Part shown: positions 8,560 through 24,050 of the stretch, piece by piece
Layout of the letters: each line of letters opens with the position of its first letter
How positions within the stretch are numbered: the stretch's first letter is position 1
Source: Nitrospiraceae bacterium
GTDB taxonomy: Bacteria; Nitrospirota; Nitrospiria; Nitrospirales; Nitrospiraceae
Assembly: GCA_046715215.1 (NCBI GenBank)
Contig: JBKJZK010000047.1
Span: 1 to 36,998, forward strand
Length of the DNA stretch: 36,998 nt
Direction: 5' to 3'
The notes under the pieces: model-generated
What the model saw: the letters and a program-made list of their open reading frames with translations, nothing else
Told to the model about the DNA's origin: nothing
Databases searched by the model: none
Translations under genes and position numbers: made by a program

Positions 8560-8577
8560 CGTTTCACGCTTCACGAA
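8560..8577. repeat. CGTTTCACG/CGCTTCACG word repeat in the AsnB-GT intergenic gap
   Basis: cgtttcacgcttcacgaa. The same word family occurs at 10643-10665, 22224-22232, 30614-30699 and 36338-36346. Confidence 0.6.
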
Positions 8578-8591: not shown

Positions 8592-10532
8592 TCATAATCG
8601 CCATGCAGCCACCTCCGCCATCGAGCCATAGGAAGAGGCGGCCGGATCTTCGCCGTCGAGAAACAGCCGCTGCCACAGCTCCAAATTCATGAGCAACCAC
8701 AGTCGATCGGTATGGGAACGACGTCCGCTTCGATGTTCTTCCGCCATGCGCGTGACGGCGGCCGGCTTGAAGAGGCCGCGGGCCAGGGCTCGCGGCCCGA
8801 GCACCAGATCTTTCACTATCGGCCAATACGGTCCCTGCAGCCACCGGCCCAACGGAACCGGAAAGCCCATCTTGGGCCTCGTCAGAATCTCGTTCGGAAT
8901 GAGATGCCGAACGGCGTTCCGCAAGACCGCTTTGGTCTCCCACCCGTGCAGGCGGAACTGGCCGGGCATCGCCCCGACCAAGTCGACCAGTTCATGGTCG
9001 AGATACGGGACGCGGCTCTCGATCGACGCCGCCATACTCATCTGATCCTGCTTCATGAGTAACTCCACCAGATGCGTTTGCACATCCACATAGCTCATGC
9101 GTTCGAGCAGGCCTTCCTGATGTTCGTTCCAGTATCGAAGCCCGTCGGCGTGCGGATCGCGGGAAGTCAGGACCCCACTGTCCCGGATCAACTCGCGCTG
9201 CATTGCCGTGGGAAACACAGAGAAATTATCGAAAAACACTCCACGGGGACCAGGCGGATACGCCAGGAACGATCGCTCGGCATAGCGGCGGACGGCACTC
9301 GGAAGACCAGCAAGCATGCGCGCCACTCCACGACGGATCGTCTCCGGCGTCGCGCCCCAATACAGACGGCCCAGCCGCTCGTTCAGCGCCGTCACGCGGT
9401 AGCGGTAGTCGTAACCGAGAAACAGCTCATCCGCCCCTTCGCCGGTGAGGACGACCTTGACATGCTGCTGCGCCAGCTTGGACACAAAATACAGCGGCAC
9501 GCTGGAATTGAAGGCGATCGGTTCATCCTCGTGCCACACCAAGCGAGGCAGCGCCTGAAAGAATTCGTGAGGCGAGACAAGGACCTCGTGATACTCGGCT
9601 CCCACCGATCGGGCGGCGAGCCGCGCATAGGGCAATTCGTTGGCTTCTGCTTCCGAAAATCCGACTGAGAAGGCATGCAACGGGTGGGACACCGCCGGGG
9701 CCATCAGCGCCGCAAGCACCGTCGAGTCCAGTCCGCCGGACAGGAACAGCCCCACGGGCACATCGCTCATCAAATGACTGCACACAACAGATTCCAGCTT
9801 GGCGCGCACCTCCCGCCCTCGCTCCTGTAGGTCGGCGGGAGAACGATCGTTCAGGACCGGCGGATGCCAATACCGCCGCTCGCGAAATCCCTCGGCGGCG
9901 GACCAGGACAGCGTGCGGCCCGGAAGCAACTTGCGCACGCGCCGAAAGAACGTTTCTTCGCCCGCGACAAACCGGGACGCCAAAAACTCCGGCAGGATCG
10001 CGTCGTTGAATTCAGGACGAAATGCCTCCGCGGCCAGGATGCCCTTGATCTCCGAGGCAAACAGCAGCTCTTGGTCCGTGCAGGCGTAGTACAGCGGCTT
10101 GATACCCAGGCGATCGCGCGCGAGCAGCAGCCGGCCTTGCACGCGATCCCAGAGCGCAAACGCAAACATCCCGCGCAGCCGTTCGACACACCGCTCTCCC
10201 TCCTCCTCGTACAAGTGCAGGATTGTTTCGGTATCGCTGCGGGTGCGGTAGCGATGTCCACGCGCTTCCAGTTCCGGGCGCAACTGCGGGTGGTTGTAAA
10301 TTTCTCCGTTGAAGACGATCCAGACCGACTCGTCCTCATTGGCCATGGGCTGATGCCCCCCGGCCACGTCCACGATCGCCAACCGGCGATGAGCCAATCC
10401 GACCGGCCCATGGGACCATAGACCGGCCCCATCGGGACCACGGTGACGCTGCACATCGCGCATGCGGATCAGCCGGTCTTCTTCGATACGATCCCGCATA
10501 GAGAACTTGACGATGCCCGCAATCCCACACAT
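8592..10532 (-). CDS. Asparagine synthase family (glutamine-hydrolysing) amidotransferase, EPS-locus paralogue 1
   Basis: N-terminal Ntn nucleophile MCGIAGI; GATase block RGPDG...NGEIYN; PP-loop DVPVGLFLSGGLDST. RBS GGAGGAGG upstream of the ATG at 10532. Confidence 0.95.
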   Translation of the reverse strand: MCGIAGIVKFSMRDRIEEDRLIRMRDVQRHRGPDGAGLWSHGPVGLAHRRLAIVDVAGGHQPMANEDESVWIVFNGEIYNHPQLRPELEARGHRYRTRSDTETILHLYEEEGERCVERLRGMFAFALWDRVQGRLLLARDRLGIKPLYYACTDQELLFASEIKGILAAEAFRPEFNDAILPEFLASRFVAGEETFFRRVRKLLPGRTLSWSAAEGFRERRYWHPPVLNDRSPADLQERGREVRAKLESVVCSHLMSDVPVGLFLSGGLDSTVLAALMAPAVSHPLHAFSVGFSEAEANELPYARLAARSVGAEYHEVLVSPHEFFQALPRLVWHEDEPIAFNSSVPLYFVSKLAQQHVKVVLTGEGADELFLGYDYRYRVTALNERLGRLYWGATPETIRRGVARMLAGLPSAVRRYAERSFLAYPPGPRGVFFDNFSVFPTAMQRELIRDSGVLTSRDPHADGLRYWNEHQEGLLERMSYVDVQTHLVELLMKQDQMSMAASIESRVPYLDHELVDLVGAMPGQFRLHGWETKAVLRNAVRHLIPNEILTRPKMGFPVPLGRWLQGPYWPIVKDLVLGPRALARGLFKPAAVTRMAEEHRSGRRSHTDRLWLLMNLELWQRLFLDGEDPAASSYGSMAEVAAWRL

Positions 10533-10597
10533 GATGCTAGACCTCCTCCATGGCGATAGTGTGATCTCCGATTACTTGACCAGAACGGGGGAAGAAA

Positions 10598-10620
10598 TTC
10601 TGAGTTCTGAGTTCTGAGTT
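10598..10620. repeat. Tandem heptamer TTCTGAG x3.3
   Basis: ttctgag ttctgag ttctgag tt, in the intergenic gap between GT4 (stop 10661) and AsnB-1 (start 10532). Same word as at 16379-16440 and 26741-26840. Confidence 0.85.
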
Positions 10621-10642
10621 GTCGGAATCCGAAAACGCCTCA

Positions 10643-10665
10643 CGCTTCACGAACGACGCTTCACG
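10643..10665. repeat. CGCTTCACG direct repeat (x2, 14-nt period) overlapping the GT4 stop codon
   Basis: cgcttcacgaacga cgcttcacg. The second copy contains the TGA (10661-10663) of the GT4 gene. Confidence 0.7.
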
Positions 10666-11734
10666 CGGCGTGGCCCGTCTCTTGCAGTGCGTTTTCCGCC
10701 TGAGCCGGAGACATTGTGGACCGCCCGGAATAGACGTCCGCCCACGCGTTACGAACATGGGACCAGGTGTGAAGATCGAGGCGTTCCTTCGCGCGATAGC
10801 CGATCAGTTGTGCGAACCCCGGGCGCTCCAGTAGGACGGTCGCGGCTTTTGCCATCGTCCTCGGATCTTGCGGCGGCACGATCATTCCCGTAATCCCGTC
10901 CTGCAGCAGAGCGGGAATATCGCCCACGCCCGTCGTGACGACCGGAAGTCCCGAGGCCATGGCCTCCAGCACGGCAGTCGACTGATGATCCGCCAGGGAT
11001 GAATTCAAGAAGATGTCCGCTTCTTCATACAGGCGAGGCATGGCGGAAGGCTCGATCCTACCCAGGAATCGGATACCCCGGTTCCCCAGCGACTCGCTGA
11101 GCTGCCGCAATTCGTTTGCGTCGCTGCCGGTCCCCGCGATGGTCAAGGTCGCATCGGCATAGCGCGTGCGCAACAGCGCAAACGCCAGCAAGGTGTTTTC
11201 TACGCCCTGTTCGGGCTCGAGATTTCTTGTGGAGAGGAAATGGGGCCGGAGCGGCGCGCGCTTCCGATAATGGAACCGGCAGACATCCACGATCGCGGGA
11301 ATGACCTTTGCACGATGCCCGTGCTGCGCAAAGATCCGTTGAAACGACAGAGAGGGCACCACGATGTCATCGACTCGCGTCTTCCATGGACCCAGCACCC
11401 TCGCGTGATCGGCGGCATCTCCGTTGTAATAACTCAGCACCACCCGCTTGCCCCATCGCTTGGCGAGCAGAATAGGACCCGTCGCCGAAAGGAAGGATCG
11501 ATCAAGCGCGGCAAAAATATGGACGACGTCCGCCGCGCGGAGCTGTCTCATGCTGGAGAGTGGAAACGGAGGCTCGACGGGCAGAAAGACCACGTCGGAT
11601 CCCTCACGCTGTAATTTGCTGGCAAGTGTCGACGCCTGAGCCCCCTGCCCGCTTGGAATCTCCGGGCCTGGGGCGATCAAGGCAATGCGTGGACGCCCGG
11701 CGATAGTCATGTCGGAAGCAAGAGAATGAGTCAT
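10661..11734 (-). CDS. Family 4 (GT-B) glycosyltransferase, paralogue of 18435-19550
   Basis: ...RIALIAPG...; C-terminal E-x7-E region ADIFLNSSLADHQSTAVLEAMASGLPVVTTGVGDIPALLQDGITG. The listed ORF (to 12073) overlaps the AsnB-2 gene, so I used an internal start at 11734 (GAGGTG RBS). The ATG at 11710 (MTIAGRPRIAL, matching the MTLARPKIAL start of the paralogue) is an alternative. Confidence 0.85.
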   Translation of the reverse strand: MTHSLASDMTIAGRPRIALIAPGPEIPSGQGAQASTLASKLQREGSDVVFLPVEPPFPLSSMRQLRAADVVHIFAALDRSFLSATGPILLAKRWGKRVVLSYYNGDAADHARVLGPWKTRVDDIVVPSLSFQRIFAQHGHRAKVIPAIVDVCRFHYRKRAPLRPHFLSTRNLEPEQGVENTLLAFALLRTRYADATLTIAGTGSDANELRQLSESLGNRGIRFLGRIEPSAMPRLYEEADIFLNSSLADHQSTAVLEAMASGLPVVTTGVGDIPALLQDGITGMIVPPQDPRTMAKAATVLLERPGFAQLIGYRAKERLDLHTWSHVRNAWADVYSGRSTMSPAQAENALQETGHAA

Positions 11735-11799
11735 GGCGAACACCTCTGCGTGCATGGTGAAGTCTCCCGGCCGAACCTCAACCTTCTTCGCGCTGACGG

Positions 11800-13737
11800 C
11801 TAGAAAGCCTGTGATAGGCTGCGGCAGGCCCTCGATGCAGACAGGGACCGCTCCGGTCTGGTGCATGTGGGGCTGATCGGTTGACCGTCTAAGAACGTCT
11901 GGCACCACAATTCGAAGGAGATCAGCGTCCACAACTGATATTCCAGCGGACGTCCTTGTTCGTGCCGGCGAACCAACGCTTCGATCGCAGGCACATCCAG
12001 GATGCCCCTCCGCCGGCACGTCTCCGACAGGATGGTGTCCCTCATGAGCGAACCCAAGTGCCTGCGCAGCCATAATCCTATCGGAGGGGCAAATCCCTGT
12101 TTAGGGCGGTCCAACACCGTGTCCGGAACCAGACCCCGCAGCGCCCGTACAAAAATATGTTTGGTCCGTCCGCGCTTTAACTTCATCTCGACCGGAATCC
12201 GCGCGGCAAATTCCACGAACGTGTGATCGAGTAACGGCACCCTGGCTTCAAGGGAATGCGCCATACTCATGCGATCCACCTTGGTCAGGATGTCCAGTGG
12301 AAGGTAATGGTCCAGATCCATCGATTGGAGTTCGGACAGCCAGTGTCCGGTTCCATTGGTCAGGCGCTCGATGCGCGATCGCTCAGTGGGACAATGCAGC
12401 AAATGGGCCATGGCTTCTCTCGTCAAGACACGATGCCGGTCGCCTCGTTTGAACAATGTCACGGCGTCGAGATAGCGCTCCGGACCGGGCAAAAAAAAGT
12501 GATGCAGCCAGTTCTTCCCTCTCATGCCTTCCGGCATCGCACTGGACAGGCTTCCGAGCGCCTCTCTGGCGATGGCGGGAAGAAATCTGGCGCGGCGTTC
12601 CCGGCCTTCAACGACATATTTCGTGTATCCTGCAAACAATTCGTCGCCGCCGTCTCCGGACAGCACCACCTTGACGTGCTGTGCCGCCAGCTTCGACACC
12701 ATATACGTCGGAATTGCGGAAGAGTCCCCGAGGGGTTCATCCAGATCCCAGGCCAAATCCTTCAGGAGTTCCATGACATCCGGTTCCAGGATCAATTCAT
12801 GGTGGTCGGTGTCGAACCGCTCGGCCACCATCCTCGCATAGGGCAGTTCGTTGAAGTCCTGATCGCGAAATCCGATGGAAAATGTTTTCACGCGTCCCGG
12901 TGCCATGGACGACATGGCCGCAACGACCGCGCTCGAATCCGTGCCTCCGCTCAAAAAGGCGCCCACGGGCACATCGCTGACGAGATGCAGCCGGACGCAC
13001 TCCGTCAGACGCGCCCGCAACTCTTCCGCGACATCGTCCTCGGACCGGCCCATCTCCGGTCGAAACTGCAGGGTCCAATAGCGTTCGATTCGTGGCTCGC
13101 CGCCGGGCACGATCGACAACCGATGGCCCGGCTCCAATTTCCGCACGCCCGCCACGATACTGTCTGTCGGGGGAGTCGTCATATAGGCCAAGAGGTGGTC
13201 GAGCGAACCCCAGTTCACCCTCCGTTCCACCTCGGGAATCTGCAAGATGGATTTCAGCTCCGATGCGAAGAGCAGGCGTCCCTTGACCATGGCGTAGTAC
13301 AAGGGCTTGATGCCCAACCGGTCCCGCGCGAGCAACAGGCGACCTCGGCGGGTGTCCCACAGCGCAAAGGCGAACATGCCCCTCAACCGTTCCACGCAAC
13401 GGTCTCCCAGCTCTTCGTACAAATGGACGATGACTTCGGTGTCCGTTGCGGTGGAGAACTCGTGGCCTCGCCCGATCAGTTCACTGCGAAGTTCCCGGTA
13501 GTTATAGACCTCTCCGTTCAAGACCACCCAAACGGTGCGATCCTCGTTGCACACCGGTTGATGCCCCGTGTGCAAATCGATTATGCTTAACCGCCGCATT
13601 GCCAAACCGACCTCTTGCGCGAGATACACCCCTTCGTCGTCGGGGCCGCGCGCAATCATCGCGGCGCACATGGCATGCAACTCTTCTTCCATCACCGGAC
13701 GCCCGGTCAGGCTCAAAATGCCGGCAATACCGCACAT
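11800..13737 (-). CDS. Asparagine synthase family (glutamine-hydrolysing) amidotransferase, EPS-locus paralogue 2
   Basis: MCGIAGI nucleophile; NGEVYN; PP-loop DVPVGAFLSGGTDSS. Colinear with 8592-10532, with about half of residues identical by eye. Confidence 0.95.
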   Translation of the reverse strand: MCGIAGILSLTGRPVMEEELHAMCAAMIARGPDDEGVYLAQEVGLAMRRLSIIDLHTGHQPVCNEDRTVWVVLNGEVYNYRELRSELIGRGHEFSTATDTEVIVHLYEELGDRCVERLRGMFAFALWDTRRGRLLLARDRLGIKPLYYAMVKGRLLFASELKSILQIPEVERRVNWGSLDHLLAYMTTPPTDSIVAGVRKLEPGHRLSIVPGGEPRIERYWTLQFRPEMGRSEDDVAEELRARLTECVRLHLVSDVPVGAFLSGGTDSSAVVAAMSSMAPGRVKTFSIGFRDQDFNELPYARMVAERFDTDHHELILEPDVMELLKDLAWDLDEPLGDSSAIPTYMVSKLAAQHVKVVLSGDGGDELFAGYTKYVVEGRERRARFLPAIAREALGSLSSAMPEGMRGKNWLHHFFLPGPERYLDAVTLFKRGDRHRVLTREAMAHLLHCPTERSRIERLTNGTGHWLSELQSMDLDHYLPLDILTKVDRMSMAHSLEARVPLLDHTFVEFAARIPVEMKLKRGRTKHIFVRALRGLVPDTVLDRPKQGFAPPIGLWLRRHLGSLMRDTILSETCRRRGILDVPAIEALVRRHEQGRPLEYQLWTLISFELWCQTFLDGQPISPTCTRPERSLSASRACRSLSQAF

Positions 13738-13816
13738 AGCTGTTCCTTTGTGGAATGTCGGATAGGCCGCTCCGACGTTTTGCTGCCTTCAGCGGTGAGA
13801 CGACTGACCCGGGCGA

Positions 13817-15055
13817 CTATTCGTCCTGGACTTTCAGTCCCAGCCGGGTCCCGCCCTTCAGAAGCATGCGATAGGCGGCGTTCGTCCGAATACGGGGGAG
13901 CACTTTAAACTTGATCCGATGCAATAAGCGGGTGCTCGGACGGTTCGGAAACACGAACAGCCACGCATGCGGCCTCACGTCATCCGTCCAGATCATCTTC
14001 CAGTTTTCGGCGGCTCCGAGCAGATCGACCTCGTCATATTTGAGACGCCAGGCATCTTCCAGCATACGCCAGCACAGCAAATGGGACGGCGCGTAGGCCG
14101 CGAAACGCGGATCGTAGCCCGACTTTATGACATAGAGCTTGTTGTGAAACAGCAGGGTGATTTGCACCGACACCCGTTCGTCCTTCACAAGCAAAAAGTA
14201 CAGGCGCAACCACCCTTGCTGCACCGCAGATAGCATAAGCCGGCGGTAGAAGGCCTCAAGCTCCGGGCGGGAGACGATCGCCGTTCCGGCTTTCTGTTTC
14301 CACGCGGCACCCTCCAGCCTGAGAGCATCGTCCAATGCTTGAGACAGTCCTTCTCCTCCTTGAACGACTTCGTGCCTGACCGGACCGCGCCGGCTCAACC
14401 CTTTCAGCCGCCCCTTTAAATTCGTCACAAACTTGCGCGACAGACCTTTCCCGTACTCATCCCACGAGCGAATGATGGGAATGTACGGGCCCTGGTTAGA
14501 TGCCCAGGTGCCTACCAGAAACCCCTCGTCAATGGCCGAACGAGGAATCGCTTTCAACGTGTGGGCGTCGGGGGGTAACTGGCGCAGGTCCAGAACGTCC
14601 CATTCCCTCGAACGGGAGGCCAGAAATTTCCAAATCGCGCGGCACGCTTCCTCCGGACGGCGGGTCACGATGAAATCGAATCGCTCGGTATAGACATTAG
14701 CAATTCCGCGGAGACGCCGTACCGGGCAGCCGTAGATCCGGCCCCGATCCAGCATGAGCGGAGCGAGCGCCACCGTCCTCGACCCTTCCGTGACGATGAC
14801 GATAAACAAACTCCCCTCCGGTTTGAAACAGTCCCACCACGTGCGTACCCATTCGTGCCGGATGAAAGGGTGATCGATACCCGCCTCATCGACGAGCCGA
14901 TTCCAGACCGGTTCCAACCGGATGAAGGATTCGTAGTCCTGAATCAAGTCGATCTGCAGGTCTGTGGCCGGCGCCTCCATCACTCTCTCCGCGACTAGTT
15001 CCTGTGGTTGCACCGATTCCTGCTGCACAACTGAAACCATCGCCGCCGTGTGCAT
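13817..15055 (-). CDS. FemAB/CelD(BcsL)-like GNAT-fold acyltransferase (Acetyltransf_6-type), paralogue 1
   Basis: ...DYESFIRLEPVWNRLVDEAGIDHPFIRHEWVRTWWDCF... and C-terminal ...KSGYDPRFAAYAPSHLL...YDEVDLLGA. I chose the ATG at 15055 (GGAGG 8 nt upstream), which avoids overlap with the upstream gene ending at 15105. Confidence 0.8.
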   Translation of the reverse strand: MHTAAMVSVVQQESVQPQELVAERVMEAPATDLQIDLIQDYESFIRLEPVWNRLVDEAGIDHPFIRHEWVRTWWDCFKPEGSLFIVIVTEGSRTVALAPLMLDRGRIYGCPVRRLRGIANVYTERFDFIVTRRPEEACRAIWKFLASRSREWDVLDLRQLPPDAHTLKAIPRSAIDEGFLVGTWASNQGPYIPIIRSWDEYGKGLSRKFVTNLKGRLKGLSRRGPVRHEVVQGGEGLSQALDDALRLEGAAWKQKAGTAIVSRPELEAFYRRLMLSAVQQGWLRLYFLLVKDERVSVQITLLFHNKLYVIKSGYDPRFAAYAPSHLLCWRMLEDAWRLKYDEVDLLGAAENWKMIWTDDVRPHAWLFVFPNRPSTRLLHRIKFKVLPRIRTNAAYRMLLKGGTRLGLKVQDE

Positions 15056-15104
15056 GGCCCTTCCCTCCTGTCCCGCTCCGGATTCAGTCCGGAGGGCCCC
15101 GACG

Positions 15105-16334
15105 TTAAGCGACACCTGGCTCGAATGCTTCGACACCATTGAGCTGCGGACGCGTTTCATCACGCGGCCTGGAATTGCGCACGGATGGCCGCTGAAACGG
15201 CAGCACGATATTCAGCTCTCTCACTTGCTGTGCCATATAATCGATGTGCGGCCATGTGATGTCTTGATGGATCGGCAGTTCCAAGACATGCCGCCGAAGA
15301 AACCGGGCGTCCGGCCCCTCATGTTCCGCCGCTGAGGGATCGCCCTCATTCCACAGTTCCGTCGCCATCACGCCCCGCTGTGCCAAGGCGCCTGATGCGC
15401 GTTTTTTGTCCGCCACAAGAAGAGGAAAAAACAACGGACAGACGCCGGGCTGCAAATCGGTGCGTACGGCGGCATGGTTCGGCAGTTGCTCGCGCAGCCC
15501 GAGAAAGTTTTCCCGGCGACGACGTTGAATGGCCTCGTAATCGAGGCGCCCAAGTACGCGCCTCGACCAGGACGCCATGCCGATATCGACATGAGACGGA
15601 TTGAATCCCGTATCGCCGACGGGGATCCGTTCGATGTGAAGCCGGTTCAACATCCTTCCGATGCCTTGTTTCACCCCGGCCAATACCTGCCCCGCCGTCT
15701 CGTCACGGCTGCGAAGCCGCTCCATCCCCAGTTCGACGAGCCGCCCGGCCGTGAACATCCGGCCGGGAGGCTGCAACGGGAGTCTGGTGAGGTCGTCGAA
15801 GACATTGCGGTTCTGGACCAGCATCGCTCCATCCGGAAGCGGAAGCGTTTTGTACAGGCAAAAGGCTGCATAGTCGCCATAGGTTCCGACCGAACGTCCG
15901 TCCACGCCGGACAACAGAGCCAACGCACAATCCTCGACCAGCACCAGGTCGCATTCAGCACAGAGCTCGCTCAGTGCGTCCATGGGCTGAGGCCATCCGG
16001 CGTAATGGATGACAAACAACACGTGCGCCCCGCTTTCTCGACAGAGCCGGCGCAATGCCGCCATATCGATATCGAACCGGCGCGTGACGGGATACCACAC
16101 GATCTGTGCCCCCGCATAGCGAATGGCCCGCACCTCGTTGCCCATGTGGTAATCGGGCATCAAGACGACACGGCGGCCACGCTCCACTAACTTGCGAAAC
16201 ACCTGGTAGATCGCGTTGCGGGCAGTGTGAAAATACGTCGCATTCGGAGCGCTCAAAGGAAACGGCAAGGCCGCATTCCTCCCGACCGCGCACAGCTCGC
16301 GCAGACCCAGGCCTTGCCACGCAGGAAGATACAT
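15105..16334 (-). CDS. PLP-dependent aminotransferase-fold protein, divergent DegT/DnrJ/EryC1/StrS-like
   Basis: ARNAIYQVF...VLMPDYHMGNEV...LVEDCALAL...YGDYAAFCLYKTLPLPDGAML (putative PLP lysine in the position expected for this family). The assignment is by pattern only. Confidence 0.7.
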   Translation of the reverse strand: MYLPAWQGLGLRELCAVGRNAALPFPLSAPNATYFHTARNAIYQVFRKLVERGRRVVLMPDYHMGNEVRAIRYAGAQIVWYPVTRRFDIDMAALRRLCRESGAHVLFVIHYAGWPQPMDALSELCAECDLVLVEDCALALLSGVDGRSVGTYGDYAAFCLYKTLPLPDGAMLVQNRNVFDDLTRLPLQPPGRMFTAGRLVELGMERLRSRDETAGQVLAGVKQGIGRMLNRLHIERIPVGDTGFNPSHVDIGMASWSRRVLGRLDYEAIQRRRRENFLGLREQLPNHAAVRTDLQPGVCPLFFPLLVADKKRASGALAQRGVMATELWNEGDPSAAEHEGPDARFLRRHVLELPIHQDITWPHIDYMAQQVRELNIVLPFQRPSVRNSRPRDETRPQLNGVEAFEPGVA

Positions 16335-16378
16335 CAGGCGGTTCCTCCATCAAGGGTAAATCAACAGGGGGGAGTGGG

Positions 16379-16440: not shown

Positions 16441-16456
16441 TTTTCTCGCCCAATCC

Positions 16457-17152: not shown

Positions 17153-17236
17153 GCAGCAAACGCATCTACTATCGTGGTGGTGGGACCATTGGAAGCGGTG
17201 CCGATAACCGATATACGCAGACGGCGCGGGCCCAGG

Positions 17237-18445
17237 CTAATCACGGTGTATCTCCACATTCATCGTTAGCGCGACGCGCTGAAATAAGGAATAAAAACGG
17301 CTTGCCCTGATGCGGGGCATCAGGCTCACTTTTAGATAGTGCAATAACCGGGGCTTGGGACGCTTGGGGAAGGCGAACAACCAGGAATGCCGGCGCAGAT
17401 CAGTGGACCAATACAGCTTCCATCGTTCCGCATTGCCGAGGAAGTCGACTTCGTCGAACTTGAGACGCCAGGCTTCATCGAGCATCATGTGAGACAGCAC
17501 ATGCCCCGGCGAAGAGGCGGCATACTGGGGATCGTATCCCGATTTCAACATATAGATTCTGTTCCGAAAGAGCAGCGCGATGCGGACGGCAATCCGCTTG
17601 GCGCCCAGCGTCAAAAAATATATCCGCAGCCATCCCCGCTCCCCCGCTGTGTGCAGTATTTGCCGAAAAAATGCTCGGCTGTCCGACCGGCTTCGAATCG
17701 CGGTGCCGCCTTCGTCTTTCCAGGTCACGGCTTCCAGGGTCAACGCCTCTTCGAGATCACTATCGAGCCGGTCGTTGGAGGCCACGACATCCAATCCAAC
17801 CGGCGCCGTAGCCTCTAGATGTCGATGAGATCTCCGTATGTTGGCGCGGTGCCCTTTCTTGAGACTTTTGAAATAGGTCTCCCATGGTTGCCGAACGGTG
17901 ATATACGGCGATTCCATGGACATCCATTCGGCCAGGAGCAACCGGCCCTCAATCTCCGATCTCGGAAGACAGCCCATGGCCCGGCTGCCCGCCGGTAGCT
18001 CCCGCAATTCGAGTACATCCCATTCACGGGAATGATCGGCCAGATAGCTCCAAATGGCGGCGCAACACTCCTCTGGATGGACCGAGAGAATAAAATCGAA
18101 CCGCTCGGTAAATACACTGGCGATCCCCCGCAGGCGCCGCACGGGAATCCCGTACATCCGGACTCTATCCCGCATCAGCGGCGCGATGGCGATCGGACGT
18201 CCGCCCTCCTGCACCATGAGAATATTGAGCGTCCCACCGTGATCGAAACAGTCCCAGACGGCGCGCACCCATTCGTGCCGCACGAAAGGAAATTCAATGC
18301 CCGCTTCCTCCACCAATCGATTCCACACCGGCTCAAGCTCGATAAAGGCCCGATAGTCCGTGACCACCTCGACAGACAACGGCCCGGCCGGCTGGCGCAG
18401 AGGGTCGGGAATTTCCGTAACCGAGACGGCGGAGCTACGCCGCAC
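17237..18445 (-). CDS. FemAB/CelD(BcsL)-like GNAT-fold acyltransferase, paralogue 2
   Basis: DYRAFIELEPVWNRLVEEAGIEFPFVRHEWVRAVWDCF...KSGYDPQYAASSPGHVL...FDEVDFLGN, colinear with 13817-15055. GTG start at 18445 overlaps the upstream stop by 11 nt. Confidence 0.8.
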   Translation of the reverse strand: MRRSSAVSVTEIPDPLRQPAGPLSVEVVTDYRAFIELEPVWNRLVEEAGIEFPFVRHEWVRAVWDCFDHGGTLNILMVQEGGRPIAIAPLMRDRVRMYGIPVRRLRGIASVFTERFDFILSVHPEECCAAIWSYLADHSREWDVLELRELPAGSRAMGCLPRSEIEGRLLLAEWMSMESPYITVRQPWETYFKSLKKGHRANIRRSHRHLEATAPVGLDVVASNDRLDSDLEEALTLEAVTWKDEGGTAIRSRSDSRAFFRQILHTAGERGWLRIYFLTLGAKRIAVRIALLFRNRIYMLKSGYDPQYAASSPGHVLSHMMLDEAWRLKFDEVDFLGNAERWKLYWSTDLRRHSWLFAFPKRPKPRLLHYLKVSLMPRIRASRFYSLFQRVALTMNVEIHRD

Positions 18446-19550
18446 GACGGATGCCCTCCGTTCTCTCGATGTGGCTCCGTCGCATCATGTCGTCGTACAA
18501 CGTCAACCATTGGCTGCGCACCCGGCTCCAGGAATACCGATCCAGCCCCTCGTAGGCGTGGGACGCCATCAACCGCGCGCGGTCCGGCTGTTCCAGCAAA
18601 AGCGCGGCGGCGGCGGCCATCGCAGCGGGGTCTCTCTCCGGCACGATCGTCCCGCTTACGCCGTCTTCAAGCATATTGGCGATGTCGCCAACGCCGGTGC
18701 TGACGATCGGCAGACCGGATGCGACGGCCTCGAGAATAGAAAGCGGTTGATTGTCGATGAGCGAGGAATTCAGGAAAATGTCGGCGCTGTCGTGGACCGA
18801 CGGCATCTCGGCAGGCTCGATCGCTCCCAGGAACCGTATTCCACTCATCCCCAGCGATCGAGACAATCGCTTGAGGTCCGTTTCTTGGCTCCCCGCGCCG
18901 ACGATCGAAAGCGTCGCATCGGGATACCTCGTCCTGAGAAGGGCAAAGGCGAGGATCGTCTGTTCCACCCCGTAGTACCATTCGAAATTTCGTATCGAGA
19001 GGAACCTGGGGCGTAGCGGCGCCCGCACGCGATACCGAAACCGCTCGGTATCGATCGTATTATGGATGACGCGGGCTCGGTATCCATAGGCGGCAAATAC
19101 TCGACGCAGATACTCCGACGGAACCACGATTTCATCCACGAGCTTCAGCCAGGGATGGATGAGCCTCCCCCAATGAGCCAGATGATCCTCCGCTTCGCCA
19201 CTGTGGTAATTGAGCACGATCGGCTTGCGGAGCATTCGACCGGATAGGAGGGCCGGGAGCGGCGCGAGGAGAAACGACCAGTACGAGGCCGAGGAGGCAT
19301 GGACGATGTCGGAGCGGCGCAGCCGAATCAACCCGGGAAGATACAGGCACTGATTGACCACGGTCCGAACGTACGGCAACCGCCTCAGCCACTTCAACCG
19401 GCGCGGAAACGCGGGGTCGATGGGAATGAGTTGCACGTCGTACCCCTCCGCCCTGAGTTGTTCGGCCAGCGTCGACGCGTGCAACGCTTGGCCGCCGAAT
19501 GTTCTTCCACTGGGTGCGATGAGCGCAATCTTGGGTCGGGCGAGTGTCAT
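18435..19550 (-). CDS. Family 4 (GT-B) glycosyltransferase, paralogue of 10661-11734
   Basis: MTLARPKIALIAPSG...; ADIFLNSSLIDNQPLSILEAVASGLPIVSTGVGDIANMLEDGVSG. RBS GAGGAC upstream. ATGA overlap with the flippase stop at 19547-19550. Confidence 0.9.
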   Translation of the reverse strand: MTLARPKIALIAPSGRTFGGQALHASTLAEQLRAEGYDVQLIPIDPAFPRRLKWLRRLPYVRTVVNQCLYLPGLIRLRRSDIVHASSASYWSFLLAPLPALLSGRMLRKPIVLNYHSGEAEDHLAHWGRLIHPWLKLVDEIVVPSEYLRRVFAAYGYRARVIHNTIDTERFRYRVRAPLRPRFLSIRNFEWYYGVEQTILAFALLRTRYPDATLSIVGAGSQETDLKRLSRSLGMSGIRFLGAIEPAEMPSVHDSADIFLNSSLIDNQPLSILEAVASGLPIVSTGVGDIANMLEDGVSGTIVPERDPAAMAAAAALLLEQPDRARLMASHAYEGLDRYSWSRVRSQWLTLYDDMMRRSHIERTEGIRRAA

Positions 19551-21019
19551 GGATCAGTCCTCGGCATAGAAGAAAGCCGTCGAGACATCCAACCTACTAA
19601 GACCTCCCGTTCGCTTTTTCGAATCAACCCGACGGTCCAGGCCAACGGAATGTAGCTTCCGCCGTAGATCACACTAATGACGACCAAGCGGACAAACGGA
19701 GACGCCGGCCACTGCAACGCAACCCACAGCGCCGGCAGGGACGCGGCGATCGTCACCGCGCCGATCCCTCTCAGCTCACGCCAGGGAAGAAGACGTCCGA
19801 TGCCGGCGTGCCAGCAGGTCATCATCCTCGCCAGCCCCATCGCTTTGCCGACCGCCAGTGCCAGCACGGTGATGAGCACGGCGCCGACCAATCCCATCCC
19901 GGTCACGAACCAGTACATCCCCCCGGCCACGATGGCCAGCCGCGCGATGTTGATGGCCAGCAGAAACCGCATCTGAGCGTACACGCGCAGCAACCCGTCC
20001 ACGGGGATCGTCGCGAAGAGAATCGCGATCGACCACACCATGAAGACCGGCACGCTGGCCGCATAGGTCTCGGTGAAGAGAAAGACGATCAGATCCTGCG
20101 CCACAATGAGCAACAGCGCCACGAGAGGAAAAAACACCAGGGCCAACTTCCGCACGGTGTCGTGCCACATGGCGATGACAGCAGTATCGCGCCCGTCTCG
20201 TATGGCCTGCATCATGCCGACCATCATGACGTTGACGACCGATGTGCTGACGACTTCCACCAGCGGGACCTGGAGACATCCGACCGAATACACCGCGAAC
20301 GTGGCTGCATCGAAGAGAGAAGACACCACGTACTGGTGCAACGTTTCCTGCCCCGTTTGAAACAACACGTAAAACGCGAACGGCAAACTGTAGGCGGCCT
20401 GCCGAAGCAACAAAGGCCAGTTCGGGCGCAGAGCGGCGCCGAATTGCTTCCTGCAATACCAGAGGGTCGTTCCGAGACGGATCACCGCGAAGACGATGGC
20501 GCCGTACAAAATACTGGCCAATGTCTGAAACAGAAGCACGGGGGCGGCGATCAGCACCGCGCGAGCGGTATCGGACAGGCCGTAGGACGCGGCGGCCGTG
20601 CCGTATCGATGACGGGCCGTCATCACGATCTCCAGCACGTAGGACGCGAGCATGAAGAGGAAAAACACCGCGATCAGCGGCATGAGGGGAGCCAGTGCGG
20701 GATTGTTCATCCATCCGGCAATGGCATCTCCCCCGGCAAAGAGCAGTGCCGCGCCGAGTAGGCCGATGCCCCCCAGAACCAAGATCGAATTACAGACATA
20801 CCGGCCTCCGTCTTCGCCTGCGCCTGGGAGAAAATAGAACAGACTCTCGGACATGCCCACCTGTGCGAGATTTAATATGGTCCCGTAGAGCAAGAACACC
20901 TGCTTGTATGTCCCGAACTCCTCTTGCCCGAACATCCGCACAAGAATGAGAGGCAAGAGGAATAAGACGACATACCCGAGCGTCCTTCCAGCCATGATGG
21001 TCAGTGCGGGTTTAAACAT
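19547..21019 (-). CDS. Polysaccharide biosynthesis protein / oligosaccharide flippase (MOP superfamily, Wzx-like)
   Basis: Polytopic membrane protein with about a dozen hydrophobic helices. I chose the ATG at 21019 (MFKPALTIMAGRTLGYV), which overlaps the deacetylase stop by 8 nt. The ORF extension to 21166 would lie inside the deacetylase gene. Confidence 0.85.
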   Translation of the reverse strand: MFKPALTIMAGRTLGYVVLFLLPLILVRMFGQEEFGTYKQVFLLYGTILNLAQVGMSESLFYFLPGAGEDGGRYVCNSILVLGGIGLLGAALLFAGGDAIAGWMNNPALAPLMPLIAVFFLFMLASYVLEIVMTARHRYGTAAASYGLSDTARAVLIAAPVLLFQTLASILYGAIVFAVIRLGTTLWYCRKQFGAALRPNWPLLLRQAAYSLPFAFYVLFQTGQETLHQYVVSSLFDAATFAVYSVGCLQVPLVEVVSTSVVNVMMVGMMQAIRDGRDTAVIAMWHDTVRKLALVFFPLVALLLIVAQDLIVFLFTETYAASVPVFMVWSIAILFATIPVDGLLRVYAQMRFLLAINIARLAIVAGGMYWFVTGMGLVGAVLITVLALAVGKAMGLARMMTCWHAGIGRLLPWRELRGIGAVTIAASLPALWVALQWPASPFVRLVVISVIYGGSYIPLAWTVGLIRKSEREVLVGWMSRRLSSMPRTDP

Positions 21020-22193
21020 GCTGCCTATCCTGGGCTTCGCGTTGCTGTCGGGACGCGATCGGCGCGCCCGCCCCGACGAGCGGCTCGACTTTACGTCCCG
21101 GTGCAGCGTCTCTTCCGTTATGATTGTGCGCACAGGGAGACCAGAAGTCATACAGACGGTTCGCATGGCAACTCATGAGGGCCGGTGAAAATTTTCCGGC
21201 CGAATCCGCGCATGATCGTTCCCACAGCAATGTGCGGGGAATCGTCAGGAAGGGATGCCTCGGATCGCGGCGGAGACAGGTTCCGTAACCAAAGCGATAG
21301 CCCGCATCGGCGACCGCCGACACCACGGCAGTGTTGAAGCGCCCATCCGGATACGCAAAGTGCTCGACCGGCCGTTTCAGCTTGTCCCTGAGCGTCAACA
21401 TCGATCCCACCGTCTGGTCGGCCACCTGCTCGACACTTTCCTCAGTAAGGAGCGCATGCGTCTGCGTATGAGATCCGATCGTCATGCCGGAATCGGCCAT
21501 GGACCGCACCATCTCCCAGTCCAATGACTGCATTTCAGGATAGGCGTCGTCGTCGATGCGGCACACCGTTTCCAGCGCTTCAATCACACGCCGCAACTTG
21601 TTCTGGGTGAGGGTGGTGAACAGCCACCGCATTGTGCGGAAGGCGTCGTCGAGCCGTCTGCCGCCGTTACCGGCGTCGAGATGGACGTCCTTCGCGTCGA
21701 GCAAGCGTCGAAATCGCTCTTCGGAATGGCCGAGGACAGGAAGGACTTTTTCAAGAAGCAAATACGTCTTGTCATACAGTTGAAGCTCCAGACGTCCTGT
21801 GGCTTCAGTTACAATAAAGATGCCTGCGGGAATTCCTTTTCGCTTCAACACAGGCAAAGCATGGTGATACACCCCGGCATAACCGTCGTCGAAGGTGACG
21901 GCCGCCGAGGGCTGCGCGAACGGCTCCCCCCTCTCCAACTGAGCGCCAAGTTCGTCCAAGGCGATGAAGCGGTACCGACGCCCGATCCACTCCAACTGAC
22001 GCTCCAGCATGGCGAGGCTGATCAGGTTCGGAAGAATCGCCCGTCCGACGTGAGCACGGACGTCTTCCACGACCGCGTGATAGCCGAGGACCAGCGGCAG
22101 CGCCTTGGTCCCCGTCCATGACGCGACGGCGCGATCGGCGCCCGTCCATCCCAGCGCTGCGGCTACCCCGGTCTTGACGAGAGTTTTGAGCAT
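21012..22193 (-). CDS. Polysaccharide deacetylase (CE4 / NodB homology domain)
   Basis: AAVTFDDGYAGVYHHALPVLKRKGIPAGIFI (TFDDG Asp-Asp motif) and MTIGSHTQTHALLT (His-His metal motif). Confidence 0.9.
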   Translation of the reverse strand: MLKTLVKTGVAAALGWTGADRAVASWTGTKALPLVLGYHAVVEDVRAHVGRAILPNLISLAMLERQLEWIGRRYRFIALDELGAQLERGEPFAQPSAAVTFDDGYAGVYHHALPVLKRKGIPAGIFIVTEATGRLELQLYDKTYLLLEKVLPVLGHSEERFRRLLDAKDVHLDAGNGGRRLDDAFRTMRWLFTTLTQNKLRRVIEALETVCRIDDDAYPEMQSLDWEMVRSMADSGMTIGSHTQTHALLTEESVEQVADQTVGSMLTLRDKLKRPVEHFAYPDGRFNTAVVSAVADAGYRFGYGTCLRRDPRHPFLTIPRTLLWERSCADSAGKFSPALMSCHANRLYDFWSPCAHNHNGRDAAPGRKVEPLVGAGAPIASRQQREAQDRQHV

Positions 22194-22224
22194 GATCGGA
22201 GACGTGATAAGGGATGGGTTGATC

Positions 22225-22399
22225 GTGAAGCGTATCTCAAAGGACTATTGACGATTGATCCATTGGACCATTGGACCATTGACTGAAGAATTGAAGATGT
22301 GTGCATTGAAACATTCTCTCATTGGAAGGCTCCGCAAATCGTCAATGACGCAAATGAATAAATCGTCAATTCCGCAGACAATGAATCAATGCATGCACC
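22225..22399. repeat. ~175-bp intergenic element, copy A (second copy at 36177-36331)
   Basis: Shares colinear blocks with copy B: gtgaagcgtatctca, ccattgactgaagaattg, cattggaaggctccgcaa, tcgtcaatgac, aatgaata, atcgtcaattcc, aatgaatcaat.catgcacc. Copy A also has the octamer CATTGGAC x3 (22261-22283). It fills the gap between stop 22410 and start 22193. Confidence 0.85.
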
Positions 22400-22409
22400 A
22401 GCGATGTGG

Positions 22410-24050
22410 CTACGTTCCGCCGCGTCTCCAAGCAATGGCCCGATCCAACATGGCTTGTGGAAGCAGTCGGCGGGCGGCCGACTTGGCTCGGTCATCGAGT
22501 GCCACCGCCCCGCGGCAGAGGACGCCTCCGGCCGAGGGAGGGAACAGCTGCAGCCTGACCAGCTCATGCGATGCGCTCGCCCACAGCGATTTGTACGTCT
22601 CGGTCCCATGCAGGAGGTCATAGTCCTCGACCCCTTCCGTCACCGCTTGCTTGATCGCCAACCCCATCGTCACGAGGCCGACGCTGTGCTGCCGATAGGC
22701 AGGATCGAATCCCGACTGATAAAAATAGAAGCGGCGTCCGTAGAGAAATCCGTACAGCGCGCCAAGGGGACGGCCGTCCAGCCGCAGGATGAACAAGCGA
22801 AGCCAGCCGCGCTCCAGCGCCGTGCGGCTGAACGAGTCATGAAACGCCTGCATCGCCGGGGACCGCAACGTCTGGGAACCTCCCCGCTCGTCCCATCGAA
22901 GATTGTGGAGGTCGATCAAATTCTGCAGCGCCTCCCGCCGCTGGTCCTCCTTCTCCACGACGTCGAAGGTCAGCGTGCCGAGCTTATGAAGATTTTTTAG
23001 CCGTCGATTGAAATTGTATCGATGCTGCGGTCCCAAGGTCGCGAGGTACGACTCCCAGGTGTGGCCCTTCAAGGGAATGTGGGGACAGACATCGATCGCA
23101 CTGCGCTGCACGGTCCACCCGGACTGCTCGAGTTCCTGCACCAAACCGGTAGCCAGCGCGCCTTTCGCATGGAGATGACTCAGCGTCATCACCGGTCGCC
23201 GGCCGTTAAAAAACTCCGCCAGACTTCGGGATACTTGTGGCTCATGCCCGCGCCGGATCATGACGTCCAAATAGTCAGACCCGACAAGGCCGGTCCCGAG
23301 AAACTGCAGGGATCGGCGGGGCATGAAGCCACCGAACCGGTGGCGCTCGCTGAAGAGCGGCGCCAGTCCGAGCAGCCGACTGTGGCGCCGGACAGTCGCG
23401 AGGGCGAGCGTTCGTCCGGTGGAAAAATGCCGCCACCAGGTCTCGAGCCACTCTCTTGTGAGAAACAGGCAATCGGCATCGCTGTCGCTCAGGAGTTCGG
23501 TCCATTCTTCCGCCAGATGCGGAAGCCGGCCTGGGTCTTCGATCAAGGTCACCAAGAGATTATCCGTCGACCGATAGGACAGCGCATCCGCTTCCTCGGG
23601 AGGTTGCAGGCAACTGTAATCCGCGATATCGATGTCTTTTCGAACCACCCTCGCCGGAATGCCCGCGACGACCGTTCTCGGCGGCACATCCTCCAGCACG
23701 ACGGCGTTCGCCCCGATCACCGATTCGGCGCCGACGGAAATGGGCCCGAGCACCTTGGCGCCTGCCCCGATGACACAACGGTCTTCGATCACCGGCACTC
23801 CCCAGCGGCGAGACCGCCCGCCGACCGTCACTTGATGGCCGACCGTGACGAGCTTGCCGATTTTGCACCGCTCGTGCAGCACGACTCCCATGCCGCCATA
23901 CGCGAACTCCGTTCCCTCGCCGATCTCCGTGGACATCGGAACAGCCGCATTGTAGAGCACGCGAATGGCTTGATACATCAACGTGGGAATCATTGGAATG
24001 CGGCGTCGATAGCACCAATGACCGACTCGATAGAAGGACAGAGCATTCAT
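22410..24050 (-). CDS. Fusion protein: N-terminal hexapeptide-repeat (LbH) serine-O-acetyltransferase-like domain + C-terminal FemAB/CelD-like GNAT-fold domain (paralogue 3)
   Basis: N-terminus FYRVGHWCYRRRIPMIPTLMYQAIRVLYNAAVP..IGEGTEFAYGGMGVVLHERCKIGKLVTVGHQVTVGG...VIGAGAKVLGPISVGAESVIGANAVV has a CysE/EpsC-like layout. From ~residue 170, LAEEWTELL..FLTREWLETWWRHF...QSGFDPAYRQHSVGLV...YDLLHG matches the two stand-alone paralogues. ATGA overlap with the upstream GT4 stop. Confidence 0.85.
   Translation of the reverse strand: MNALSFYRVGHWCYRRRIPMIPTLMYQAIRVLYNAAVPMSTEIGEGTEFAYGGMGVVLHERCKIGKLVTVGHQVTVGGRSRRWGVPVIEDRCVIGAGAKVLGPISVGAESVIGANAVVLEDVPPRTVVAGIPARVVRKDIDIADYSCLQPPEEADALSYRSTDNLLVTLIEDPGRLPHLAEEWTELLSDSDADCLFLTREWLETWWRHFSTGRTLALATVRRHSRLLGLAPLFSERHRFGGFMPRRSLQFLGTGLVGSDYLDVMIRRGHEPQVSRSLAEFFNGRRPVMTLSHLHAKGALATGLVQELEQSGWTVQRSAIDVCPHIPLKGHTWESYLATLGPQHRYNFNRRLKNLHKLGTLTFDVVEKEDQRREALQNLIDLHNLRWDERGGSQTLRSPAMQAFHDSFSRTALERGWLRLFILRLDGRPLGALYGFLYGRRFYFYQSGFDPAYRQHSVGLVTMGLAIKQAVTEGVEDYDLLHGTETYKSLWASASHELVRLQLFPPSAGGVLCRGAVALDDRAKSAARRLLPQAMLDRAIAWRRGGT

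Follow-up and report, generated by a model that had tools for sequence, protein, structure and literature searches.

What would be made by a bacterial polysaccharide operon in which the tailoring genes occur as interleaved sets of old paralogues? This question is raised by a stretch of 36,998 nt from a Nitrospiraceae bacterium (contig JBKJZK010000047.1; this whole stretch is hereafter the window), whose proteins were examined with Pfam and NCBIfam profile scans. Gene calls and domain scans placed 23 genes on the minus strand, from 33418 down to 3508, in a single-strand operon of ~30 kb. A priming glycosylphosphotransferase (PHPT; TIGR03025), Wzx (PF13440), a Wzy-type polymerase (PF04932), a polysaccharide co-polymerase (PCP; PF13807), a BY-kinase (AAA_31 and TIGR01007-like), and Wza (PF02563) are all found in this one locus, and the operon is a full Wzx/Wzy-dependent exopolysaccharide (EPS) set, of which positions 8592-24050 form the tailoring core. 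An earlier reading of the same DNA (the original prediction) had proposed an EPS operon with heavy tailoring, which the domain scans bore out, and its phrase "amide or aminoacyl decorations" is still the most reasonable reading of the product. The locus resembles an expanded, uncharacterised tailoring module of the Wbp/Vim type inside a Wzx/Wzy EPS operon, and not an undescribed kind of system. The preferred scheme, to which a probability of roughly 0.6 is given, is one in which sugar amines are N-acylated and carboxyl groups are amidated in an exported EPS. The genes of the core, in the direction of transcription, are as follows.

22410..24050, minus strand: LbH acetyltransferase::Fem3 fusion protein, with a hexapeptide (LbH) domain at residues 2-138 and a Fem3-type tandem-GNAT region at ~150-546 (PF13480 122 bits at residues 342-488)
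21012..22193, minus strand: CE4 polysaccharide deacetylase, proposed amine generator for Fem3 (PF01522 83 bits; TFDD and HTQTH motifs)
19547..21022, minus strand: Wzx-type flippase (PF13440, PF01943)
18435..19550, minus strand: GT4b glycosyltransferase, sister of GT4a (Glyco_transf_4 and Glycos_transf_1)
17237..18445, minus strand: Fem2, tandem-GNAT FemX-fold transferase (PF13480 118 bits; AlphaFold2 (AF2) model; invariant W342-K343)
16457..17152, minus strand: single-domain GNAT acetyltransferase, Fem2 partner (PF00583 39 bits; canonical acetyl-CoA motif RGRGIA)
15105..16334, minus strand: divergent DegT/DnrJ/EryC1-type sugar aminotransferase, proposed amine generator for Fem1/Fem2 (PF01041 56 bits)
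13817..15055, minus strand: Fem1, tandem-GNAT FemX-fold transferase (PF13480 105 bits; motif DLLGAAENWKMIW at residue 344)
11800..13737, minus strand: AsnB2, predicted WbpS-like glutamine-dependent amidotransferase (TIGR03108 628 bits, cut-off 817; TIGR01536 522 bits; Cys1, SGGTDS)
10661..11734, minus strand: GT4a glycosyltransferase, without a 21-residue N-domain segment of GT4b
8592..10532, minus strand: AsnB1, predicted second WbpS-like amidotransferase (TIGR03108 552 bits, cut-off 817; Cys1, SGGLDS)

Every AsnB, Fem-like, and GT4 gene named in the original prediction was found where it had been placed, on the minus strand, and the genes were indeed interleaved, running GT4b, Fem2, GNAT, DegT, Fem1, AsnB2, GT4a, AsnB1 in the direction of transcription. 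In this locus, the CE4 gene adjoins a Fem-like gene, and AsnB-like and GT4 genes are found with them. The same combination is found in the Wbp/Vim pathway of Porphyromonas gingivalis and Tannerella forsythia, with which the window shares the CE4-Fem pairing, an AsnB-like amidotransferase, a DegT-type protein (WbpE), an acetyltransferase (WbpD), and a glycosyltransferase (VimF). WbpD is a hexapeptide enzyme, and VimF belongs to GT4. The pathway is supported by genetic and mass-spectrometric evidence: the CE4 protein VimE is proposed to de-N-acetylate, the Fem-like VimA sets whether Ser or Gly is placed on the sugar amine, as shown by gene swap between the species, the AsnB-like WbpS makes a uronamide, its deletion shifting the mass by 1 Da, and VimF is a predicted glycosyltransferase (Veith et al. 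2020, PMC7468200). It had been claimed that no chemistry for the locus could be read from known pathways and that the Fem-like subfamily of EPS loci had no defined substrate. The Wbp/Vim pathway supplies the same four roles, with VimA as the precedent for a Ser/Gly substrate (PMC7468200), and because this precedent is published the first of these claims is not correct, the second does not hold either, and the system is not of an undescribed kind. Nor is the gene set itself new: a VimA-like gene, CE4, asparagine synthase, and glycosyltransferase set is known from EPS loci of Nitrosomonas, Nitrosococcus, and Desulfovibrio (PMC7468200), and three wbpS copies with femA and CE4 are tabulated for the EPS cluster of Rubrivivax, Thauera, and Rhodoferax (PMC3684757).

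The window nevertheless departs from the Wbp/Vim pathway in several respects. It carries three Fem-like domains and two AsnBs, where the pathway has one of each, and its Fem-like proteins are not members of TIGR03019, which VimA matches (PMC7468200). Its second class of Fem-like protein is coupled to DegT rather than to CE4, and it differs further in a duplication of Fem genes specific to the lineage, in fusions with GNAT and LbH domains, and in having two orthologue groups of AsnB. Genes for WbpA (UDP-GlcNAc 6-dehydrogenase) and WbpB (3-oxidase) were not found in the window, and no WbpB-like gene was seen in related loci. The predicted product of the window is an exported Wzx/Wzy polymer, whereas that of the Wbp/Vim pathway is the linking sugar of A-type lipopolysaccharide for type IX secretion (T9SS) cargo.

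The two AsnB proteins, which are 41% identical (E = 1.6e-147), both contain GATase_7 and Asn_synthase domains (PF00733 325 and 348 bits) and belong to the class II amidotransferase/asparagine synthase B family (PF13537 and PF00733; TIGR01536 515 and 522 bits vs 267). As had been noted earlier, the Cys nucleophile (MCGIAGI) and the PP-loop (SGGLDS/SGGTDS) are kept in both, as is the equivalent of Glu348 of Escherichia coli AsnB (TGEGADE/SGDGGDE). The best-scoring family for both was TIGR03108, that of WbpS and WbqG from Pseudomonas aeruginosa O6 and E. coli O121, which aligned end to end (AsnB2 spans model positions 1-624 of 628) and has the Cys1 nucleophile and PP-loop in common with them; the window differs in having two diverged copies in separate clades. 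Uronamide formation by WbpS/WbqG is credited to King 2010, as cited in PMC7468200 and PMC3684757. A reading of the pair as housekeeping asparagine synthetases, which TIGR01536 formally allows, was rejected on the grounds of conserved operon context and WbpS-type full-length architecture. AsnB1-type proteins are the most conserved of the cassette, with 65-77% identity in distant loci vs 45-60% for the other genes, and their gene usually adjoins one for a heparinase II/III-like protein. In the tree, they form a monophyletic clade (12 of 12 tips), with an AsnB2-type gene always in the same locus.

All three Fem-like proteins are members of PF13480 (Acetyltransf_6; gathering score 22 bits), in keeping with the earlier assignment of an acyltransferase fold. 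Fem1 and Fem2 are 49% identical (E = 1e-145), and Fem3 shares 26% identity with each of them (E = 1e-33 to 1e-36). A third Fem domain had been predicted within 22410-24050 and is present there, although it is not confined to the C-terminal half as had been thought; the N-terminal 140 residues are the LbH domain, which is EpsC/CysE-like (125 and 107 bits, PF00132), and nearly all of the remainder is Fem-like. The proteins are clear PF13480 members in the manner of CelD/BcsL (COG5653), and relatives are named "CelD/BcsL family acetyltransferase" by JGI, but cellulose synthase is absent from the window. PF13480 contains 43,822 representatives of 50%-identity clusters at E <= 1e-3, and to our knowledge essentially no substrates have been defined for it.

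Searches of the PDB with the Fem2 sequence were uninformative, giving zero matches with the single sequence and only non-significant matches to FemX with a profile (E ~1), and a comparison at the level of the fold was therefore needed. A tblastn search of plasmids with Fem2 returned just 21-26% identical "GNAT family" genes, with uninformative names, in alphaproteobacterial EPS-like loci. The AF2 model of Fem2 is a double-GNAT protein (pLDDT 88, pTM 0.84) whose top Foldseek entries in the PDB were 6snr, 1ne9, 4ii9, 9wqw, and 1lrz (E ~1e-10). The enzymes that it matched best are FemX from Staphylococcus aureus and Weissella, Sbb17/Sba18 in complex with streptothrisamine, the amino sugar that they aminoacylate, as well as FemA and MprF, and the fold is FemX-like. 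A motif of the form D[FL]L[GH]x(3-5)[WYF]KxxW is common to all three Fem-like proteins and reads DLLHGTETYKSLW at residue 478 of the Fem3 protein. Its [WYF]-K pair, 8-9 residues past an invariant Asp, is invariant in the three proteins and in both family alignments, the Lys included. The pair resembles the catalytic Lys305 of FemX and the aromatic-Lys pair Phe328-Lys329 of DhpH-C (PMC12945691). The C-terminal tails are strongly basic, with 8-11 Lys or Arg in the last 45 residues. The double-GNAT fold and the basic C-terminal helices are features shared with the FemABX enzymes, among them Sbb17/Sba18 and Orf11, and the aromatic-Lys pair near the C terminus may be another. Orf11 aminoacylates an amino sugar from Gly-tRNA in vitro (PMC12945691) and so provides a precedent for a sugar amine as acceptor, as is proposed here. 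A second motif, [QR]xxGx[GA], occurs at homologous sites in the N-terminal lobe (RLRGIA at residue 114 of Fem1 and 104 of Fem2, QFLGTG at residue 249 of Fem3). It adjoins the invariant Arg103 and Arg104 and, unlike in canonical GNATs, does not stand directly ahead of a helix; it could be vestigial, or it could still work as a loop that binds the pyrophosphate of coenzyme A (CoA), a UDP-sugar, or undecaprenyl diphosphate.

Each class of Fem-like protein is encoded beside, or fused with, an enzyme proposed to generate sugar amines. In 48 of the 55 testable metagenome loci, the Fem3-type gene is followed directly by that for CE4. Among 43 cases of Fem1/2-type genes, DegT stands directly beside the Fem1/2-type gene in 32 and at most two genes away in 38. 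The DegT-type protein of the window has TlmJ, PglE-like, WecE, and QdtB structures as its PDB matches and keeps the EDCA motif, and the Lys that binds pyridoxal phosphate, in FCLYKTL, aligns with that of TlmJ. Fusions among family representatives elsewhere join DegT with Fem (P0362), GT4 with Fem and CE4 (P0422), GT4 with Fem (P0365 and P0375), Fem with Hexapep (P0502), and a methyltransferase with Fem. In several Nitrospira, the small GNAT and the Fem2 orthologue form a single protein; such fusions occur in L005, L006, L007, P0019, P0020, and P0024-P0031. LbH and Fem3 are fused in nine loci of the Nitrospira scan and 12 metagenome loci and are split but adjacent in L031, L039, and L042. Such patterns of adjacency and fusion are those expected if the Fem-like proteins N-acylate sugar amines during assembly of the repeat unit. 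A CE4 deacetylase and a methyltransferase had been placed alongside these genes in the original prediction; the former is there as a separate gene (21012-22193), and the latter (4815-5678) lies outside the interval that had been named. One relative of the Fem-like family from outside the window (P0393) combines a tandem Fem-Fem protein with a receiver domain and with a GGDEF diguanylate cyclase, which links the family to cyclic di-GMP signalling in some organism.

From gene content, folds, motifs, orthology, adjacency, and fusions, we infer the following substrates and products. CE4 would de-N-acetylate a sugar of the repeat unit, the freed amine would be re-acylated by the Fem3 domain, and the fused LbH domain would acetylate nearby. 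The DegT-type aminotransferase would aminate a keto-sugar, the amine so made would be acylated by Fem1 and Fem2, and the small GNAT beside Fem2 would probably cap the Fem2 substituent with acetyl. AsnB1 and AsnB2 would use glutamine-derived ammonia and ATP to convert carboxylates, most probably of uronic acid, to primary amides. The unit would be built by the GT4s, flipped by Wzx, polymerised by Wzy_C, and exported by PCP, BY-kinase, and Wza. The paralogue sets are proposed to be two ancient functional couples, CE4-Fem3 and DegT-Fem1/2, together with an amidation step, and the predicted product would resemble that of the Wbp/Vim pathway in having amino-uronamide sugars with N-aminoacyl or possibly N-acetyl-aminoacyl groups. 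In view of their FemX double-GNAT fold and invariant aromatic-Lys dyad, the Fem-like proteins most likely use aminoacyl-tRNA as donor, a tentative assignment given slightly under even odds.

Several results weigh against this scheme. None of the three Fem-like proteins matched TIGR03019 (pepcterm_femAB) even at E <= 10, where HMMER filters may hide very weak matches, and none matched PF02388 (FemAB), which, with the non-significant similarity to FemX, sets them apart from the FemABX enzymes; a PF02388 match is present in a few homologues (P0062, P0095, and P0120). Their sole NCBIfam match was BspF, which is named a crotonyl transferase. The Foldseek TM-scores of Fem2 were modest (0.45-0.65), with tandem GNATs that use acyl-CoA just slightly lower in the list, and the suggested equivalence of Fem2 W342-K343 with FemX F304-K305 is one of motif position, not of superposition. 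Both AsnBs miss the curated TIGR03108 cut-off of 816.9 bits (552.2 and 628.4 bits), which places them outside that equivalog. Neither a UDP-sugar 6-dehydrogenase nor an oxidoreductase or dehydratase for the keto-sugar of DegT was found among the proteins of the window, and the uronic acid and keto-sugar substrates are therefore drawn from related loci only.

Part of this evidence would also be accounted for if the Fem-like proteins were acyl-CoA-dependent N-acyltransferases that add acetyl, hydroxyacyl, crotonyl, or similar groups, so that the polymer would bear unusual N-acyl groups instead of amino acids, with the rest of the scheme unchanged. PF13480 belongs to the GNAT clan, BspF is named for such a reaction, tandem GNATs (2wpw, 7q3a, VipF, and 5kga) follow close behind in the fold search, the N-terminal lobe of all three proteins has the [QR]xxGx[GA]-like motif, and the FemX profile matches are non-significant (E = 0.8). 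This alternative is possible but doubtful. The top ten fold matches of Fem2 are all aminoacyl-tRNA-dependent enzymes, the C-terminal catalytic lobe of the Fem-like proteins is without the canonical CoA pyrophosphate motif that the neighbouring GNAT has (RGRGIA), and the invariant aromatic-Lys dyad and strongly basic tails argue in the same direction. The fusion of a separate acetyl-CoA GNAT to Fem2 orthologues fits better if Fem2 adds a group with a free amine, and in the VimA precedent it is the enzyme that sets which amino acid is added. The BspF of Brucella itself differs in being a secreted effector, with a similarity to the Fem-like proteins of only ~36-58 bits.

The preferred reading of the AsnBs, as amidating uronic acids, has its own competitor, in which one or both would amidate the carboxyl of an appended amino acid (e.g. 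Asp/Glu to Asn/Gln). AsnB2 is encoded directly downstream of Fem1, an AsnB gene is found with Fem-like genes in 19 of 21 loci (within 7.5 kb), and no uronic-acid-forming dehydrogenase was found in the window, all of which would suit such a role. The AsnB-family proteins LtsA and AsnB1 (a namesake of the window protein) amidate carboxyls of the peptidoglycan stem peptide. Such a role for the AsnBs of the window is considered unlikely, since the best family of both AsnBs is, end to end, the WbpS/WbqG type TIGR03108, for which there is genetic evidence for uronamides, and since AsnB is retained in loci that have only one Fem-like gene. UDP-sugar dehydrogenase and heparinase II/III-like genes also accompany the cassette in related loci: UDPG_MGDP_dh genes are found in L015, L037, and L089, and heparinase II/III-like genes adjoin AsnB. 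A further UDP-sugar dehydrogenase is encoded on L099, a short contig not demonstrably linked to the EPS locus; EPS genes of Nitrospira moscoviensis come from the same sequencing run. The conserved secreted beta-helix protein of the window, with its fold like that of PL6 lyases and GH87/GH136 hydrolases, is another indirect hint of uronic acids.

The close homologues of the window proteins are exclusively from Nitrospira, the cultured N. moscoviensis among them. In 11 Nitrospira loci from metagenome-assembled genomes (GTDB genomes), every paralogue is matched by a separate orthologue, at 55-89% identity and in the same order. The 21 kb examined of the syntenic locus of N. moscoviensis (CP011801, 2,474,314-2,495,528) contains three Fem-like genes together with a single gene each of the AsnB2 and GT4b types. 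Outside Nitrospira, Fem3-type relatives occur at ~50% identity. The core order of Fem3-type, CE4, Wzx, AsnB, and GT4 is shared with a Rokubacteria genome and dozens of soil-metagenome contigs, and in the Rokubacteria genome and an unrelated metagenome-assembled genome the full arrangement is Wzy_C, GT4, Fem, DegT, (Fem,) Fem, CE4, Wzx, AsnB, GT4, heparinase II/III, AsnB. At least 542 confirmed relatives were recovered in the metagenome scan, with the same gene order in ~30 long contigs. Across loci, the cassette ranges from one to three Fem-like genes and from one to two AsnBs, which puts the window, with three and two, at the rich end.

Phylogenies, as suggested in the original prediction, recovered Fem3-type, Fem2-type, and AsnB1-type groupings that co-occur across loci. 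In the neighbour-joining analysis, Fem3-type sequences formed one clade (96 of 96 tips), with Fem1 and Fem2 jointly forming the second, and Fem2-type sequences were found in a subclade of 17 tips (15 of them Fem2-type) from the loci closest to Nitrospira. Fem1 and Fem2 are a lineage-specific duplicate pair. The paralogue pairs have third-codon-position identities of 38-40%, and their longest exact shared nucleotide runs are 11-17 nt; the duplications are therefore old. A recent duplication or an assembly artefact was rejected in view of the saturated third-codon positions and the separate orthologue clades, and the description of these genes as old, maintained paralogues stands, each belonging to an orthologous group of its own that co-occurs with the others across genomes.

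GT4a and GT4b are 50% identical (E = 7e-106), and orthologues of GT4b occur at 64-89% identity in Nitrospira loci and at 57-62% in distant loci. As had been observed, GT4a is missing a segment of about 20 amino acids in the N-terminal domain; the segment, of 21 residues, reads RRLKWLRRLPYVRTVVNQCLY in GT4b and is basic and amphipathic. GT4a also gave zero Pfam matches for the N-domain, its gene is missing in Nitrospira loci L001 and L011, and it may be an accessory or decaying copy. These features, with the loss of the small GNAT gene from L001-L004 and L011, are what would be expected if the paralogues were redundant or partly decaying and the polymer an ordinary acetylated heteropolysaccharide. 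That is the least probable of the readings considered, a very small chance indeed, because every Fem and AsnB paralogue is of full length, keeps its motifs, and falls in its own orthologue clade despite saturated synonymous divergence, and because AsnB1 is conserved more strongly than any other protein in the cassette.

Between the conserved blocks, the segment is variable. In L082 (1350-9995) it encodes an RCC1-repeat protein, a luciferase-like monooxygenase, an AMP-binding enzyme, and a carbamoyltransferase, in N. moscoviensis (L012, 11225-13575) Methyltransf_21 and a metallo-beta-lactamase-fold protein, and in L099 (4103-6534) a carbamoyltransferase, SxtJ, and DUF5989.

A second known group with which the window was compared is that of the XrtA/PEP-CTERM EPS loci (Haft 2006; Rubrivivax gelatinosus psc1, Thauera, and Rhodoferax). 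PCP, BY-kinase, Wza, PHPT, Wzy_C-like, several GT4s, CE4, and a FemAB-related gene are common to both, and up to three wbpS-like asparagine synthases per cluster resemble the multiple AsnBs of the window. The best NCBIfam matches of many window genes are XrtA-associated (TIGR03007, 03018, 03013, 03097, 03027, 03016, 03088, and 03108), and attachment of proteins has been speculated for VimA-like genes in EPS loci (PMC7468200), so that a divergent XrtA/PEP-CTERM-type system, in which the modified sugar would be the acceptor for covalent attachment of sorted proteins, has to be weighed. It is judged highly improbable, since almost all of these matches are under their curated cut-offs, since exosortase and PEP-CTERM protein genes are absent from the 37-kb window and from all related loci examined, and since TIGR03019 and TIGR03006 are unmatched. 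When the profile searches proposed in the original prediction were carried out, the AsnB and PF13480 families were confirmed, and the thresholds of the PEP-CTERM families TIGR03019, TIGR03108, and TIGR03006 were missed; in a search of the three Fem-like proteins and the CE4 at E <= 10, TIGR03006 appeared only at E = 0.13. "Nitrospira multiformis" of Haft 2006 is Nitrosospira and was rejected as evidence for Nitrospira. Literature searches on Nitrospira EPS loci, exosortase, or asparagine synthase found nothing relevant, and no orthologous locus with a solved polymer structure, which the original prediction had named as a ground for setting it aside, was found in the literature.

In soils and wastewater plants, Nitrospira oxidise nitrite, and some lineages carry out complete ammonia oxidation; they grow as dense, matrix-embedded microcolonies. 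We know of no chemistry for the polymer of this matrix, and the operon is a strong candidate for its source. No new category is opened by the locus, which follows the enzyme logic already published for the Wbp/Vim pathway; the interest of the locus is mainly in the spread of the cassette, the ecological weight of Nitrospira, and the rule by which amine generators and Fem-like proteins are paired. This pairing rule may help to predict substrates across the PF13480 family and can be tested. Other phyla and soil metagenomes share the core order (Fem-like, CE4, Wzx, AsnB, GT4), and a single biochemical characterisation would therefore annotate a large, unnamed gene set. By analogy with the Fem-built bridges of peptidoglycan and with the T9SS linking sugar, the EPS could go further and be "glycopeptide-like," with up to three tRNA-donated amino acids on amino-uronamide sugars and with free or acetyl-capped alpha-amines as handles for cross-bridging of chains or attachment of proteins, though we regard this as quite unlikely. 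If true, it could account for how strongly the matrix of Nitrospira microcolonies coheres, and such an EPS would be a widespread class in soil bacteria, from Nitrospirota, Rokubacteria/NC10, and many soil-metagenome sources, with an exosortase gene in none of the loci examined.

Around the core, the operon is completed by the following genes, again in the direction of transcription.

32630..33418, minus strand: NusG-paralogue (UpxY/RfaH/LoaP-like) antiterminator at the operon head (NF033644 UpxY 92 bits, cut-off 100; TIGR01955 RfaH 75 bits; PF02357 NusG)
31363..32577, minus strand: putative outer-membrane beta-barrel protein (weak TIGR03016 match only, E = 1e-7, 31 bits vs cut-off 91; orthologues at 59-65% in L006 and L012)
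30702..31484, minus strand: Wza-type polysaccharide export protein with Poly_export and SLBB (PF02563, PF10531; best families EpsY and TIGR03027, sub-cut-off)
28995..30602, minus strand: polysaccharide co-polymerase/chain-length determinant (TIGR03007 261 bits, cut-off 279; PF13807 GNVR)
28143..28985, minus strand: BY-kinase-type P-loop ATPase (TIGR03018 130 bits, cut-off 231; TIGR01007 101 bits, cut-off 108; AAA_31)
26863..28098, minus strand: priming polyprenyl-phosphate glycosylphosphotransferase (TIGR03025 321 bits, passing the cut-off of 296; PF02397 204 bits)
25321..26661, minus strand: Wzy_C/O-antigen-ligase-like polymerase (PF04932 69 bits; TIGR03097 137 bits, cut-off 188)
24047..25210, minus strand: GT4c glycosyltransferase, with an open reading frame to 25543 and a likely start at MKFVTLF (Glyco_transf_4 and Glycos_transf_1; TIGR03088 stp2-like 178 bits, cut-off 409)
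7374..8567, minus strand: TuaH-like GT-B glycosyltransferase (NF047676 TuaH 90 bits, sub-cut-off; PF13692)
5722..7377, minus strand: secreted protein with a right-handed beta-helix fold, probably a glycanase that acts on the polymer as lyase or hydrolase (AF2 model pLDDT 88)
4815..5678, minus strand: S-adenosylmethionine-dependent methyltransferase (PF08241 76 bits)
3508..4743, minus strand: GT2 glycosyltransferase, the last gene of the operon (PF00535 73 bits)

Intergenic distances in the operon are mostly short or negative, the largest being 216 bp, and scans of the window against Rfam and for promoters and terminators gave nothing above background. For the antiterminator, UpxY, RfaH, and LoaP were the best families, each missed by just a little. 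Because its NGN domain starts at residue 99, the true start is probably internal and the 98-residue N-terminal extension probably untranslated. The presence of a NusG paralogue at the operon head suggests processive antitermination along the 30 kb. The longest open reading frames of the exporter (30702-31484) and the outer-membrane protein (31363-32577) overlap by 122 nt, and the exporter probably starts at an internal Met ahead of its signal peptide (MIPRMFIYLAIG).

The beta-helix protein (551 residues) matched zero Pfam or NCBIfam families. Its AF2 model matches GH136, GH87, and PL6 alginate lyase/chondroitinase B with TM-scores of 0.4-0.5. It has 3588 homologues, the best 120 of which, at 53-86% identity, are from Nitrospira, NC10, and Acidoferrales. 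Its gene fills the slot that is taken by a heparinase II/III-like gene in related loci.

A gene at 1869-3401 (+), on the other strand and just downstream of the operon, encodes a 510-residue protein with an N-terminal hydrophobic segment and zero family matches, preceded by an OmpR-type response regulator at 341-1066. At the other end, a further GT4 glycosyltransferase at 33730-34911 (+) is divergent from the operon head and may share the same system.

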